From a phage: a DNA stretch of 64,000 nt. The stretch lies in the NCBI GenBank assembly GCA_014740375.1, contig GCA_014740375.1_3041.1, one strand, 5' to 3'. Position 1 is the stretch's first letter. Each line of letters starts with the position of its first letter. Of this stretch, positions 946 to 55,470 are shown piece by piece. The notes beneath the pieces were generated by a model. That model was not told where the DNA came from. It made no database searches and saw only the letters and a program-made list of their open reading frames with translations. The position numbers and the translations under genes are program-made.

Positions 946-965
946 AAGGGACCTTCGGGTCCCTT
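946..965 (+). terminator. Rho-independent terminator-like hairpin after gene 23
   Basis: AAGGGACC-TTCG-GGTCCCTT stem-loop followed by T-rich tract. Confidence 0.6.
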
Positions 966-2302: not shown

Positions 2303-2324
2303 AAAGGGACCTTTCGGTCCCTTT
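2303..2324. terminator. Bidirectional terminator hairpin between gene 24 and rnlB
   Basis: AAAGGGACC-TTTC-GGTCCCTTT flanked by A/T runs on both strands, between convergent genes. Confidence 0.6.
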
Positions 2325-6696: not shown

Positions 6697-8205
6697 ATGG
6701 ATATTAAAGTACATTTTCACGACTTCAGTCATGTACGCATCGATTGTGAAGAGAGCACGTTCCACGAATTAAGAGATTTCTTTTCGTTTGAAGCTGATGG
6801 GTATAGATTTAACCCTCGCTTCAGATATGGCAACTGGGATGGACGAATCCGTCTTTTAGATTATAATCGTCTTCTTCCATTCGGCTTAGTCGGGCAAATT
6901 AAAAAGTTCTGCGATAACTTTGGCTATAAAGCCTGGATTGACCCGCAGATTAACGAAAAAGAAGAATTATCAAGAAAAGATTTTGATGAATGGCTTTCTA
7001 AATTAGAAATCTATTCAGGAAATAAAAGAATTGAACCACACTGGTATCAAAAAGATGCAGTGTTCGAAGGATTAGTTAATCGTCGTAGAATTCTTAATCT
7101 TCCAACATCCGCAGGTAAATCTTTAATTCAAGCTTTGCTTGCTCGGTATTATTTGGAAAATTATGAAGGCAAAATTCTTATCATTGTTCCAACAACTGCT
7201 CTGACAACTCAGATGGCTGATGACTTTGTTGACTATCGTTTATTCAGTCATGCAATGATAAAGAAAATCGGCGGTGGAGCATCAAAAGATGATAAATATA
7301 AAAATGATGCACCAGTTGTTGTTGGTACATGGCAAACTGTAGTAAAACAACCGAAAGAATGGTTCTCACAGTTTGGAATGATGATGAATGATGAATGTCA
7401 TCTTGCCACAGGAAAAAGTATTTCATCTATCATATCAGGTTTAAATAACTGTATGTTTAAATTTGGTTTGTCTGGTTCATTACGTGATGGCAAAGCCAAT
7501 ATAATGCAGTATGTTGGAATGTTTGGTGAAATATTTAAGCCAGTAACGACCTCTAAATTAATGGAAGATGGACAAGTAACTGAGTTAAAAATTAATAGTA
7601 TTTTTCTTCGCTATCCCGATGAGTTCACTACTAAATTAAAGGGAAAAACTTACCAAGAAGAAATAAAAATTATTACTGGACTCAGTAAAAGAAATAAATG
7701 GATCGCTAAATTAGCTATTAAGCTTGCACAAAAAGATGAAAACGCTTTTGTCATGTTTAAACACGTATCGCACGGTAAAGCTATTTTCGATTTAATTAAA
7801 AATGAATACGATAAAGTTTATTACGTATCAGGGGAAGTTGATACCGAAACCCGCAACGTAATGAAAACCTTAGCTGAAAACGGTAAAGGAATAATTATAG
7901 TAGCTAGTTATGGTGTATTTTCTACCGGTATTTCAGTTAAAAATCTGCATCACGTTGTTTTAGCACACGGTGTTAAATCTAAAATTATTGTATTGCAAAC
8001 AATAGGTCGCGTATTACGTAAGCATGGTTCCAAAACAATCGCAACAGTCTGGGACCTCATCGATGATTGTGGTGTTAAGCCAAAATCTGCTAATACGAAA
8101 AAGAAATACGTTCATTTGAACTATCTTTTAAAACACGGCATTGATCGTATTCAGCGCTACGCAGATGAAAAATTTAATTACGTAATGAAAACAGTTAATT
8201 TATAA
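6697..8205 (+). CDS. uvsW: UvsW DNA helicase
   Basis: 502 aa; helicase motifs (PTSAGKS, DECH); T4 position. Confidence 0.92.
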   Translation: MDIKVHFHDFSHVRIDCEESTFHELRDFFSFEADGYRFNPRFRYGNWDGRIRLLDYNRLLPFGLVGQIKKFCDNFGYKAWIDPQINEKEELSRKDFDEWLSKLEIYSGNKRIEPHWYQKDAVFEGLVNRRRILNLPTSAGKSLIQALLARYYLENYEGKILIIVPTTALTTQMADDFVDYRLFSHAMIKKIGGGASKDDKYKNDAPVVVGTWQTVVKQPKEWFSQFGMMMNDECHLATGKSISSIISGLNNCMFKFGLSGSLRDGKANIMQYVGMFGEIFKPVTTSKLMEDGQVTELKINSIFLRYPDEFTTKLKGKTYQEEIKIITGLSKRNKWIAKLAIKLAQKDENAFVMFKHVSHGKAIFDLIKNEYDKVYYVSGEVDTETRNVMKTLAENGKGIIIVASYGVFSTGISVKNLHHVVLAHGVKSKIIVLQTIGRVLRKHGSKTIATVWDLIDDCGVKPKSANTKKKYVHLNYLLKHGIDRIQRYADEKFNYVMKTVNL

Positions 8206-8219
8206 GGGCTTCGGCCCTT
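8204..8219 (+). promoter_or_regulatory. Intercistronic GC hairpin (UUCG loop) between uvsW and uvsW.1
   Basis: AAGGGC-TTCG-GCCCTT immediately before GGAG Shine-Dalgarno of next ORF. Confidence 0.5.
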
Positions 8220-16735: not shown

Positions 16736-16753
16736 GGGGACCGAAAGGTCCCC
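16736..16753. terminator. Terminator hairpin between convergent gene 54 and alt-region genes
   Basis: GGGGACC-GAAA-GGTCCCC followed by ATATTTTTATTT. Confidence 0.6.
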
Positions 16754-32437: not shown

Positions 32438-34025
<1,588 letters not shown>

Positions 34026-34033
34026 AATAAAAT

Positions 34034-34054
34034 GGGCCTTGCGGCCCACTCCTT
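34034..34054 (-). promoter_or_regulatory. Hairpin-bridged (split) ribosome binding site of denA
   Basis: AAGGAG, then 14-nt GGGCC-GCAA-GGCCC hairpin, then 8 nt, then ATG; hairpin would bring the Shine-Dalgarno to about 9 nt from the start. Confidence 0.5.
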
Positions 34055-35231
34055 AAAAGTATTTTTTAAAACTCATCATAACTTTATCATCAACATCATT
34101 ATCAATCTGTGCAACAAGATAAGATGACAGTTCTACTTCTTGTGGCGCGGATTGAACATTATCAGAATTAAGATATTCACGAATCCAAGGATATGGATGT
34201 TTAACCGGAGCATCGGTAATTGGGCATGGAAGACCGCACTGTTTCATACGAGATACAGTTAAGTAATCAATAAAGCTCCACATGCTATTTGTATTTAATC
34301 CAGGAACATCGCCATCTTTAAATAAATGAACTGCCCAATCTTTTTCTTGGCGGTTAACTTCCATGAAAATATCAACTGCTTCTTGTTCACACTCTTGAGC
34401 AATTTTAACCCATTGACCGCCATCAGTACCAGATTGAAGTTGACGAATAATATATTGGGTGCCTTTAAGGTGAAGCTGTTCATCGCGTGCAATGAACTTC
34501 ATAATCTTGGCATTACCTTCCATGATTTCCATGTTCTTATGGAAGTTAAAGGTACATGCGAAAGATACATAAAAACGAATAGCTTCCAATGCGTTGATTA
34601 CATGCAAACAGAGGTAAAGAGATTTCATTAGCTCACGCTTCCAATATGTCTCATGCTCAATAGCATCTTCAATAACGTCTTCGTCTGCATTAATTTCTTT
34701 TTGGTATTCGATATCAGCTTTAGCGTTTTCCCAATAACGAGTTTTAATCAGAACATCATCATAATAACGTCCAATGGATTCAGCACGTTTCATAATAGCT
34801 TCATCTAATACAATTTCATCAAATACCTTCGATGGATCAGTATAAAGATTTCGCATGATATGAGTATATGAACGACTGTGAATAGTTTCACTAAAAGTCC
34901 ATGTAGCAACCCATGTATCAAGACTTGGGTCTGAAATTAATGACATAAGTACAGCAGATGGCGCGCGACCCTGAATACTATCTAAAAGTGATTGATACTT
35001 CAAGTTGTTAGTAAAAATATTTTGCTGATACTGAGGAAGCTTATTAAACTGTGCAGCATCCATCATCAAGTTTACTTCTTCAGGACGCCAGAAAAATGAT
35101 AATTGCTTTTCGGTTAAATCTTCAAAAACTTTATGACGTTGAATATCATAACGCGCAATACCAAGACCTGAACCAAAAAACATAGGTTCTTTTAAAACAT
35201 CAACTGGATTTGTATTAAAAACTGTGCTCAT
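34053..35231 (-). CDS. nrdB: Ribonucleotide reductase small subunit (uninterrupted)
   Basis: 392 aa continuous ORF with di-iron ligands; no intron interruption. Confidence 0.93.
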   Translation of the reverse strand: MSTVFNTNPVDVLKEPMFFGSGLGIARYDIQRHKVFEDLTEKQLSFFWRPEEVNLMMDAAQFNKLPQYQQNIFTNNLKYQSLLDSIQGRAPSAVLMSLISDPSLDTWVATWTFSETIHSRSYTHIMRNLYTDPSKVFDEIVLDEAIMKRAESIGRYYDDVLIKTRYWENAKADIEYQKEINADEDVIEDAIEHETYWKRELMKSLYLCLHVINALEAIRFYVSFACTFNFHKNMEIMEGNAKIMKFIARDEQLHLKGTQYIIRQLQSGTDGGQWVKIAQECEQEAVDIFMEVNRQEKDWAVHLFKDGDVPGLNTNSMWSFIDYLTVSRMKQCGLPCPITDAPVKHPYPWIREYLNSDNVQSAPQEVELSSYLVAQIDNDVDDKVMMSFKKYF

Positions 35232-35282
35232 AAATTTTCCGCTTAGTTAATAGTTGGTGACTCGTCCGTGAGTCAAATTATA

Positions 35283-41877: not shown

Positions 41878-41896
41878 GGGGACCTCTAGGGTCCCC
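41878..41896 (-). terminator. Rho-independent terminator of gene 32
   Basis: GGGGACC-loop-GGTCCCC followed by TTTTTTATTT on minus strand. Confidence 0.65.
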
Positions 41897-53900: not shown

Positions 53901-54648
53901 GAATAACGGCATAGCTGTTCGCAGCGCAGCTTTATTCTATAATAGTATAAATGTCAAAGATAATGGTTCTATTAACTTTGATAAGTCTGGTGCTAACCCA
54001 AGAAATATGAGAATATTTCATGCTGGCGATGCTTCTCGTGGTAACCGTATTGAAATTGCAGATGAAACTAACTATATTGCTTACTTTGAAAAAGCTCCAG
54101 GTGGAGCTAACCGCTTTGTAGTAAATAATGCTACTGTAGCTGGTGTTAATCAAATGAATTCATTTGGTATTAACATCAATAACGCACTTGGTGGAAATAG
54201 TATAGCATTTGGTGATAATGATACTGGAATTAAACAATCCGGTGACGGACTTCTTGATATTATTACTAACGCCGCACGCCGAATGAGATTCCAGACGGGT
54301 GACACTTATTCTGACATGAATATAAATGCCCCAAACGTTTATATTCGTTCTGATATTCGTTTGAAATCTAATTTCAGACCTATTGAAAATGCTCTTGAAA
54401 AGGTTGAACAGCTTGATGGTTTAATCTATGATAAAGCTGACTATATAGGTGGTGAAATTGTTCAGACTGAAGCGGGTATTGTGGCTCAAACACTGCAAGA
54501 TGTTTTACCAGAAGCAGTTCGTGAAGTTGAAGATATTAAAGGTAATAAAATACTCACTGTTTCTTCTCAATCCCAGATTGCTCTTCTAGTTGAAGCTGTG
54601 AAAACACTTTCTGCTCGTGTAAAAGAACTTGAATCTAAACTTATGTAA
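50920..54648 (+). CDS. 37: Long tail fibre distal subunit gp37 with C-terminal intramolecular-chaperone-like domain
   Basis: 1242 aa; C-terminal ~100 aa (SDIRLKSNF ... LIYDK ... ending in coiled coil) resembles self-cleaving chaperone domains of tail fibres. Confidence 0.88.
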   Translation: MATLKQIQFKRSKTAGARPAASVLAEGELAINLKDRTIFTKDDSGNIIDLGIAKGGQIDGNVTIDGTLRVNGPINNFGNFSTSGTITASNIVSATVFRSTSGSFYTRAINDTANAHLWFENTNGSERGVLYSKPQSENEGVITMRVRQGTAAGAQNSEFHFISTDGGIFQARKLTALTSISTPTISVNLINHDSKSFGQYDSQSLVNYVYPGTGETNGVNYLRKVRAKSGGTIYHEICTAQTGLADEVSWWTGNIPLFKLYGIRNDGRMIIRNSLAIGTVTEGYPSSDYGNTVVMGDRYLALGDNASGLKWVRTGVIDLMANGISAATIINNGINSTKKLMVGYSRDSGSTWDFPNNNQAMFTARTDIDGNNNGDGQTHIGYSSNSKMYHYFRGTGRMAVGMAEGLIVEPGILDIKTGSNRVAIRADGTFDSTQRISMRTGLFLSGDDNTNALSFKAPTGVDGTKTINWDAGTRNGQNKNTVTIKAWGNSFNSTPGNRETVFEVSDSQGYYFYAQRTNPASGQTVGPVNFKFNGTVETDHIIGLGNISASGTGSFGGNVTMSNGLFVQGGSSITGQVKIGGTADALRIWNAEYGAIFRRSESNLYIIPTPKGAGESGGISNLRPLIIELNTGTVKMSHDVHLGDSGSGTGLLQVSNSLKTIKMICPVTINERNAALTLDSPSSSSANYLQGSKAGTRSWYVGLGGAGNDLSLYSQSYGHGLVISDNFTSITKPLKVGNAQLGTDGNITNGSGNFANLNTTLNRKVNSGFITYGATAGWYKFATVTMPQSTSTVFFKIAGGSGFNSGLFTQCNIAEIVLRTSNERPADLNAVLYTRTIAAAFKNIAVNNVSGDTYDIYVYAGTYCNQLTCEWSCTENATVSVIGINSSTQSPVDALPDTAVDGQVANVLNNLVDRGKVKRYEADSEIAINSQTGIRIRSNGDKTGSVATMLRNDGGSFYILFTDKNATDGAATVNGDWNSKRPFAINLTTGEVLMNNGIAVRSAALFYNSINVKDNGSINFDKSGANPRNMRIFHAGDASRGNRIEIADETNYIAYFEKAPGGANRFVVNNATVAGVNQMNSFGININNALGGNSIAFGDNDTGIKQSGDGLLDIITNAARRMRFQTGDTYSDMNINAPNVYIRSDIRLKSNFRPIENALEKVEQLDGLIYDKADYIGGEIVQTEAGIVAQTLQDVLPEAVREVEDIKGNKILTVSSQSQIALLVEAVKTLSARVKELESKLM

Positions 54649-54649
54649 A

Positions 54650-54667
54650 AGAGGGCTTCGGCCCTCT
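54650..54667 (+). promoter_or_regulatory. Intercistronic GC hairpin (UUCG loop) between genes 37 and 38
   Basis: AGAGGGC-TTCG-GCCCTCT. Confidence 0.5.
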
Positions 54668-54678
54668 AAGGATTTTTA

Positions 54679-55470
54679 ATGGCAATTGTAGGTGTTCCTG
54701 GCTGGATTGGCGAATCTGCCGTGAATGAAACTGGACAACGTTGGATGGATGCTGCGATGAAAGCTGTTCGTGTTTCAGTTCCCGGCTGGATGAGCTCAAT
54801 GGCTGGACAATCTAAAGAAGTATATTATAGTGTTGGTGCTAGCAATTCTTACAATAAAGACACATTGATAAATTGGATAAAAGCCCAAGGCAGTACTCCT
54901 GTTGTTATTACTATTACAGGAAATATTGTTTCTCAATCTACTGGTGTTCCATGCTTAGATTTTCCTAGCTCATTAACTAATGCATATGTTACCTTAAATA
55001 TTAATAGTGGGGTTCATGTATTAGGTCGGGGAGGAAATGGCGGAAGTAACTCTGCTGGTGGAGCAGGAGGAACTGCAATAAATAACGGAATTGGAACTCG
55101 TTTAAGAATAAACAATAATGGTATTATTGGTGGCGGTGGCGGTGGCGGCGCTGGTGCTAGATATCATCCTTTCCCCCAAATGGATATGATATTTGGTGGC
55201 GGCGGAGGTCGTCCATTTGGTGCAGCAGGTCGAGCAGGCGGCGGCGCTGCGGCAGCATCTGCCGCTACAATTTCTGCTCCTGGTAAAGGTACTGTTTCTG
55301 GGGTTCACCATGGAGGAGATGGTGGAGATTTGGGGGCTGCGGGCAAATCTTCATATATTCAAGGTGGTACTGGAGGAACTGTTCACTCGGGTGGCGCAGC
55401 AGGTAAAGCTGTTACTGGTAATGCTCCAACTTGGACTAAAGTTGGTACAATATATGGTGCAAGAGTATAA
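54679..55470 (+). CDS. 38: T2-type tail fibre tip adhesin gp38 with glycine-rich motifs
   Basis: 263 aa; several Gly-rich motifs (GGGGGGGAGA, GGGGGRPFG, GGDGGDLGAAG) separated by variable segments; T4 gp38 is a 183-aa chaperone. Confidence 0.85.
   Translation: MAIVGVPGWIGESAVNETGQRWMDAAMKAVRVSVPGWMSSMAGQSKEVYYSVGASNSYNKDTLINWIKAQGSTPVVITITGNIVSQSTGVPCLDFPSSLTNAYVTLNINSGVHVLGRGGNGGSNSAGGAGGTAINNGIGTRLRINNNGIIGGGGGGGAGARYHPFPQMDMIFGGGGGRPFGAAGRAGGGAAAASAATISAPGKGTVSGVHHGGDGGDLGAAGKSSYIQGGTGGTVHSGGAAGKAVTGNAPTWTKVGTIYGARV

Follow-up and report, generated by a model that had tools for sequence, protein, structure and literature searches.

In phage T4, RNA structure shortens the over-long spacing separating the Shine-Dalgarno (SD) sequence from the AUG of genes 38 and 25, from 22 to 5 and from 27 to 11 nt, respectively, and mutations that destabilise the stems lower translation initiation (Uzan & Miller 2010, PMC3014915). 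Such sites are termed split or non-contiguous (PMC7297116). The split SD of gene 38 goes back to Gold (1988, as cited in PMC7297116); that of the gene 25 ribosome-binding site (RBS) was treated by Nivinskas et al. (1999) and Malys & Nivinskas (2009), as reviewed in PMC3014915, and the gene 25 arrangement is kept in close T-even phages only, being lost in distant relatives (PMC3014915). Split RBSs are cited as rare curiosities, with the two T4 cases as the usual examples.

Here, we describe the junction between nrdB and denA, the gene for endonuclease II, in a 64,000-nt stretch of phage DNA (contig GCA_014740375.1_3041.1), the whole of which is called the window below. We consider it likely that this junction is a split translation initiation region, the third in T4 after those of genes 38 and 25. 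Its use by the ribosome is something we infer from the sequence, the predicted fold, covariation, geometry and the likeness to genes 38 and 25.

The nrdB-denA junction

The window is Tequatrovirus DNA: Shigella phage Sf22 is 99.8% identical to it over 1 kb, and the nrdB-denA junction of phage T4 is identical to that of the window. On the minus strand, the gene order is nrdA, nrdB (35231-34053), denA and rnlA. The window nrdB is uninterrupted (392 aa) and separated from nrdA by a 51-nt gap (window 34053-35282); T4 nrdB carries the I-TevIII intron, and nrdB.1 and mobE lie between T4 nrdA and nrdB (L001:3956-6001). The minus-strand junction reads AAA UAC UUU UAA GGAG U GGGCC GCAA GGCCC AUUUUAUU AUG AAA GAA, and its features are as follows:

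34053-35231, minus strand: nrdB open reading frame, 392-aa NrdB; the Sf22 counterpart is annotated as ribonucleotide reductase small subunit
34055-34053, minus strand: UAA stop codon of nrdB, which overlaps the denA SD
34049-34055, minus strand: SD UAAGGAG, with the core AAGGAG at 34054-34049
34047-34049, minus strand: in-frame GTG, opening the longest open reading frame (33615-34049, 144 aa)
34048, minus strand: single U between SD and stem
34034-34047, minus strand: hairpin GGGCC-GCAA-GGCCC, five G-C pairs
34047-34043, 34042-34039 and 34038-34034, minus strand: 5' arm GGGCC, loop GCAA (a GNRA tetraloop) and 3' arm GGCCC
34026-34033, minus strand: A/U-rich spacer AUUUUAUU / ATTTTATT from the hairpin to the start codon, also a short U-tract
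33615-34025, minus strand: denA (endonuclease II) coding sequence, ATG at 34025-34023, 136 aa

The original prediction described a hairpin lying between denA and its only good SD, and its coordinates, sequence and arithmetic hold base for base. UAAGGAG is a 7-nt perfect complement to the 3' end of 16S rRNA, with a calculated anti-SD duplex free energy of −8.0 to −8.7 kcal/mol, by stretch scored. The spacer AUUUUAUU contains no SD (duplex ΔG with the anti-SD of +2.8), and the −16 to −3 region of denA is weaker than −4 kcal/mol against the anti-SD, in agreement with AAGGAG being the only good candidate. The last G of AAGGAG is exactly 23 nt from the A of the denA ATG. Leaving out the 14-nt hairpin reduces this distance to 9 nt, the value that had been predicted for the folded RNA, and to 7 nt if a sixth pair, between the flanking U34048 and A34033, forms too.

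Folding calculations uphold the proposed stable 14-nt hairpin between the SD and the ATG. Its free energy is −10.0 kcal/mol as a 14-mer and −11.6 kcal/mol as a 16-mer, its five core pairs have a probability of 1.0 in contexts of 100-280 nt, and it is contained in both the minimum free energy and the centroid structures; a 66-nt context folds with z = −3.3 relative to shuffles. For the T4 type, the prediction prolongs the helix by weak G.U and A-U pairs with the U-tract, which mask GGAG (probability 0.3-0.99). The same masking extension is predicted at the T4 gene 38 site and is not conserved in denA relatives. A conserved off-state, in which this G.U helix sequesters the SD, was rejected because the extension is lacking in most relatives, by inspection of their junctions, and is predicted for gene 38 too. 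Comparison of 33500-34600 with Rfam at E ≤ 10 returned sub-threshold noise only; the top match, L20_leader, scored 24.7 bits, where the gathering score is 58.7.

The AAGG in the hairpin loop and 3' arm was considered as the denA RBS and rejected: it is base-paired, specific to the T4 type and missing in homologues with a UUCG loop. In the phage 107 record (L003:962-964), an automated ribosome_binding_site feature has been put on the AGG of the loop and 3' arm, an example of how RBS callers are misled at this junction.

Conservation and geometry among relatives

Junctions were gathered from IMG/VR, metagenomes and GenBank phages, and 29 distinct nrdB-denA junction sequences, from IMG/VR and the record of Serratia phage 4S, align in register. 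Among these, 96.3% of the cells of the six-pair helix are standard pairs, and double-sided changes number 25. None of 500 shuffles reached the observed covariation score of 0.378; slid controls, in which the 3' partner is moved by 1-3 columns with relatedness preserved, give scores of at most 0.192 and at most four double changes. RNAalifold recovers the same stem. The variants are GGGCC/GGCCC, GGGGC/GCCCC, GGGAC/GUCCC, AGGGC/GCCCU, GGGAG/CUCCC and a 7-bp GGGAGAC/GUCUCCC, and the metagenome locus L094 is set apart from L057 by one spacer base and a clean G-C to C-G double change within the stem.

On the sense strand, the loop is UUCG in 19 of the 25 scored distinct junctions, the others having GCAA/GUAA, UUAG, UUUG or CUUGA. 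Stable loops (UUCG or GNRA) are found on the sense strand only, which suggests that selection acts on the mRNA; a DNA-level palindrome or protein-binding site was rejected for the same reason. About 500 Tequatrovirus records match the 86-nt junction at 95% identity or better, and the element is also present in several other genera. Judged from these alignments, the denA hairpin is a selected, conserved sense-strand RNA structure. Distant DenA homologues, from Aeromonas phages and Slopekvirus, have another upstream gene and no hairpin, and are uninformative.

For the 25 scored distinct junctions in which a hairpin lies close to the AUG, distances were counted from the core stem of 5 bp, in part by re-reading by hand. 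Of the 28 distinct junctions parsed that bear a hairpin, 25 have an AAGGA/AAGGAG-type motif 0-2 nt 5' of the stem. Throughout the scored set, a GGA(G)-type SD directly follows or overlaps the nrdB stop, the AUG is located 7-9 nt 3' of the stem with a spacer sequence that is free to vary, and the gap between stem and AUG contains no SD (ΔG ≥ −0.1). The linear distance from GGN to the AUG is 22-24 nt in 24 junctions and 28 nt in L048, which has a stem 2 bp longer; with the stem looped out, the distance is 8-10 nt in all 25, L048 included. This single informative case suggests that the looped-out spacing is the quantity that is kept. In three distinct junctions (L072, L073 and L037), SD-like purines run into the stem's 5' arm, which bridging in its pure form leaves unexplained.

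Five other junctions of the window show the opposite order: a post-stop hairpin is followed by a 12-19-nt gap to the AUG, which holds a normal SD. Upstream of denA in Krischvirus (ECD7) there is another gene, and GAGGAAAGGA follows the hairpin, with the SD in the gap between hairpin and AUG.

At the window junction, the 30S subunit would pair with the UAAGGAG that overlaps the nrdB stop, and the 14-16-nt tetraloop hairpin would fold as a compact side-branch. The AUG, linearly 23 nt away, would thereby come to lie at a normal spacing of 7-9 nt from the SD. The conserved structure, the sole SD upstream, the canonical looped-out spacing and the match with genes 38 and 25 all support the original idea of a hairpin-bridged SD. 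Our literature search found nothing specific on the denA initiation region, on T4 3' ends at this site or on initiation-site profiling, no denA toeprint, reporter or N-terminal sequence and no paper naming a denA split site; older T4 papers were outside its scope, and a prior mention is possible.

With the SD overlapping the stop codon of nrdB, the site is necessarily covered by any ribosome that terminates there; a link between the two events is therefore probable, and coupling of denA translation to nrdB in the window phage is plausible. The DenA nuclease degrades host DNA, which would make a built-in tie of its synthesis to nrdB biologically sensible. In the fHe-Yen9-01-like L023 (L023:1440-1530, the same as in L067) and in the metagenomic L107 (L107:~370-400), the nrdB TGA and the denA ATG overlap as ATGA and there is no intergenic region; SD, hairpin and spacer are all gone. 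L023 looks like a clean deletion of about 31 nt of the T4-type element, its nrdB 3' end being T4-like (...KKYL*). The two ATGA lineages show that the element is dispensable and that nrdB-coupled denA translation is viable, which agrees with the coupling raised in the original prediction without proving it for T4. The window resembles them in that its denA SD overlaps the nrdB stop, and differs from them in that stop and start do not overlap but are 27 nt apart, with the hairpin in between. A read-through fusion of NrdB and DenA was rejected, as the UAA-AUG distance is 27 nt, in frame, in the T4 type and 26 or 28 nt in other lineages.

Other roles for the hairpin and the denA start codon

The hairpin could instead be mainly an nrdB 3'-end element, acting as a weak intrinsic terminator or attenuator, as a barrier to 3'-exonucleases or as both; denA would then be translated chiefly by ribosomes that have just left the nrdB UAA and re-initiate 29 nt downstream, and the SD would be a helper or irrelevant. 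We regard this account as unlikely, while giving it some weight. About a dozen GC-rich tetraloop hairpins occur right after stop codons in the window, so the primary selected role of the denA hairpin, which is one of them, could differ from initiation. Members of this family are intergenic and have 5-7-bp G-C stems with UUCG (or GAAA, UUUC or 5-nt) loops; in sense-strand coordinates they are:

948-963, plus strand: post-stop hairpin
2306-2321, plus strand: post-stop hairpin
3907-3892, minus strand: post-stop hairpin
8205-8218, plus strand: post-stop hairpin
16737-16752, both strands: post-stop hairpin
19142-19127, minus strand: post-stop hairpin
21317-21304, minus strand: post-stop hairpin
25235-25220, minus strand: post-stop hairpin
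41880-41894: post-stop hairpin
54651-54666, plus strand: post-stop hairpin
60978-60963, minus strand: post-stop hairpin
63400-63387, minus strand: post-stop hairpin
63632-63619, minus strand: post-stop hairpin

Candidate functions for the family are termination, 3' protection and a part as folding nucleus. Where a gene follows closely on one of these window hairpins, its SD comes after the hairpin. A 3'-end role leaves unexplained why such a post-hairpin SD is constantly lacking at denA, unlike at the other junctions, and why a non-coding GGA(G) is conserved right after the stop.

The T4-type 6-bp stem is followed by UUUUAUU, with a U-tail score of 3.94 that, among the hairpins scored, is second to that of the post-gene 32 hairpin (4.99). 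Across relatives, the stem and its spacing of 7-9 nt from the AUG are conserved but the U-tract is not, with scores of 0.6-3.9 (0.6-1.2 in L072, L037 and L044). Several GenBank records label a 'terminator' at the junction, but a simple consensus terminator scan does not call the hairpin, presumably because the G.U extension of the stem consumes the U-tract, and no TransTerm terminator with nrdB and denA named as its flanks is listed by Nolan et al. (2006), whose table covers RB69 too. A comparable hairpin with a short U-tract, in nearby mobE, terminates 30-50% of transcripts (Wilson & Edgell 2009, PMC2790892). The two share a short stem, a 4-nt loop, a short U-tract and the transcription unit; the mobE terminator has a 9-bp stem, mapped 3' ends and partial termination, whereas the denA stem is 5-6 bp long, its U-tract is unconserved and an AUG lies within 8 nt. 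The direct coupling of nrdB and denA by an ATGA overlap in two lineages counts in favour of this 3'-end account. On the other hand, the room for a promoter of denA's own is 8 nt, i.e., none, so termination cannot be efficient. While serving as part of a split initiation region, the hairpin may in addition shield nrdB transcripts or bring about their partial termination.

Extra-stable C(UUCG)G hairpins of T4 mRNA were the subject of a 1988 study summarised in PMC4371310. The denA hairpins are likewise small and closed by a tetraloop, C(UUCG)G in 19 of the 25 scored junctions. The class, reportedly from Tuerk et al., is defined by stability and not by a role in initiation, and at other junctions the SD follows the hairpin. 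The window loop is C(GCAA)G, a GNRA loop outside the class; given the loops at the homologous junctions, we take the window hairpin to be a positional homologue in which one stable loop has been swapped for another.

A more elaborate scheme, a three-way switch, appears quite improbable to us. The hairpin would attenuate or stabilise nrdB RNA and, on read-through RNA, also build the denA RBS, and in T4-type phages GGAG would be a target of RegB. Termination of nrdB ribosomes would occlude the denA site, fixing a low DenA:NrdB ratio, and a RegB cut in GGAG would stop denA translation after the early period. RegB is reported to cut without S1 where GGA lacks pairing and the fourth G is constrained (PMC3014915). 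The GGAG at the foot of the hairpin (34049-34052, minus strand) fits this S1-free description and does not have the strong-site consensus GGAGRAYARAA.

If DenA began at the GUG (34049-34047), it would have 144 residues and the hairpin would be mere coding sequence; this is very hard to reconcile with the comparisons made here. The GUG opens the longest open reading frame and is the start in the T4 record (GenBank AF158101.6, 137517-137951, L001:3518-3952; 435 nt, 144 aa), but other annotators have picked the ATG (Sf22, fPS-2 and phage 107). Those of Sf22 remarked that the protein 'lacks 8 N-terminal residues'. The first G of the GTG is also the last base of the sole SD, which leaves zero spacing, and its last G is the first base of the stem, placing the codon at the foot of a structure of about −10 kcal/mol. 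An in-frame upstream start is found in only three junction types (9 of the 29 distinct sequences), each time at −24, a trivial result of the T before the stem and the 8-nt spacer. The eight extra 'codons' change by covariation of RNA pairs, not synonymously. At the protein level, DenA homologues align from MK(E/D)IA, i.e., from the Met of the window ATG. The crystallised enzyme (PDB 2WSH, EndoII part 99% identical) was made from a construct of MHHHHHH plus MKEIAT..., and biochemical EndoII constructs begin at MKEIAT as well. With the GTG unconserved and overlapping the SD, these comparisons place the start of denA at ATG 34025 (136 aa) and not at the GTG. The GTG inside the hairpin had already been called implausible, a judgement that its lack of conservation and of usable SD spacing supports. 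The comparisons also suggest that denA has been given the wrong start codon in the T4 reference record; they favour the ATG located 24 nt further downstream.

The frequency of the split layout was assessed by scanning for ATGs with no SD (ΔG ≤ −4) at −16 to −3, a self-contained hairpin (ΔG ≤ −5) ending 4-10 nt before the ATG, and an SD (ΔG ≤ −5.5) within 10 nt before the hairpin. These thresholds were set after denA had been seen; both literature cases were recovered without tuning. The 2456 ATGs on both strands of the window gave two matches, denA and gene 25, both true gene starts, while dinucleotide shuffles gave 0.85 matches per ~2490 ATGs, which makes ~0.03 expected for the ~100 real starts that we estimate. 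Among the 6846 ATGs of the complete T4 genome, the scan picked out gene 38, gene 25, denA and one non-gene ATG. The latter, at 110908 (minus strand, inside hoc), opens a 21-codon reading frame preceded by GGAGCAUC and an 18-nt hairpin and, with ~2 chance matches expected across the T4 genome, is probably one of these. A chance juxtaposition at denA, of an SD-like string after the stop and an incidental palindrome, with SD-independent initiation on an A/U-rich leader, has a negligible probability in our view: AT-rich phage genomes do yield A/U-rich leaders, and a TAA before a G-rich stem makes weak AAGG strings at other junctions too, but the stem covariation far exceeds the slid controls, about 500 Tequatrovirus records are at least 95% identical over the 86 nt, with several other genera in addition, and the layout is rare in shuffles.

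Comparison with genes 38 and 25

In T4, the junction before gene 38 is GCA-UAAGGAG-AG-GGGC-UUCG-GCCC-UUCUAAAU-AUG, with the stop codon of gene 37 inside the SD. As in denA, an upstream UAA is contained in UAAGGAG and is followed by 1-2 nt, a G-C stem with a stable tetraloop, 8 nt without an SD and the AUG; the linear SD-AUG spacing is 22 nt, against 23 nt for denA. The gene 38 loop is UUCG, as in most denA homologues, whereas that of the T4-type denA is GCAA (GNRA). Gene 38 is a late gene that follows gene 37, and denA acts early in infection, in host DNA degradation, and follows nrdB; the gene 38 case has been described in the literature, whereas that of denA is proposed here. The window itself has a T2-type gp38 (263 aa), preceded by a hairpin GAGGGC-UUCG-GCCCUC and then a normal SD, UAAGGA, 6 nt from the AUG. 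Comparison of this junction (window 54640-54683, plus strand) with that of T4 (L112:820-852), where the SD comes before the hairpin and is split, suggests that the same hairpin serves both layouts.

The split RBS of gene 25 is present in the window and served as an internal positive control:

9848-9813, minus strand: gene 25 split RBS, at the gene 26-25 junction
9848-9842, minus strand: SD AAGAGGA
9841-9824, minus strand: hairpin CUCAAAG-AAUU-CUUUGAG, followed by CUAUUGUA
9815, minus strand: AUG of gene 25

The stop codon of gene 26 overlaps this AUG (UAAUG). Like denA, gene 25 has an SD, 0-1 nt, a hairpin, 8 nt and the AUG. Its hairpin is 18 nt long, A/U-rich, weaker (−6.4 kcal/mol) and inside the coding sequence of gene 26, unlike the denA hairpin, which is G-C-rich, non-coding and located after the stop.

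If the denA site functions as proposed, T4 has used this layout repeatedly as a design at its gene junctions, and two of the three cases have the upstream stop codon within the SD; the natural variants of stem, loop and spacer then form a ready set for probing how a hairpin between SD and AUG is fitted in by the 30S subunit. A correction of the denA start, from 144 to 136 aa, would also be supported, both for the T4 reference and for records copied from it. Programs that call genes or predict RBSs would be expected to fail at such sites when they take the longest ORF by rule or allow the SD only a window of fixed spacing.

The traits of the described split regions are found at denA: a distal SD (23 nt, with ~22-27 nt in the known cases), no SD at canonical distance, a stable hairpin wholly between SD and AUG, and compensatory changes in relatives. 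The looped-out spacing of 7-9 nt is inside the range of 5-11 nt of the known cases. Sharing the layout of genes 38 and 25, denA is probably the third T4 example.
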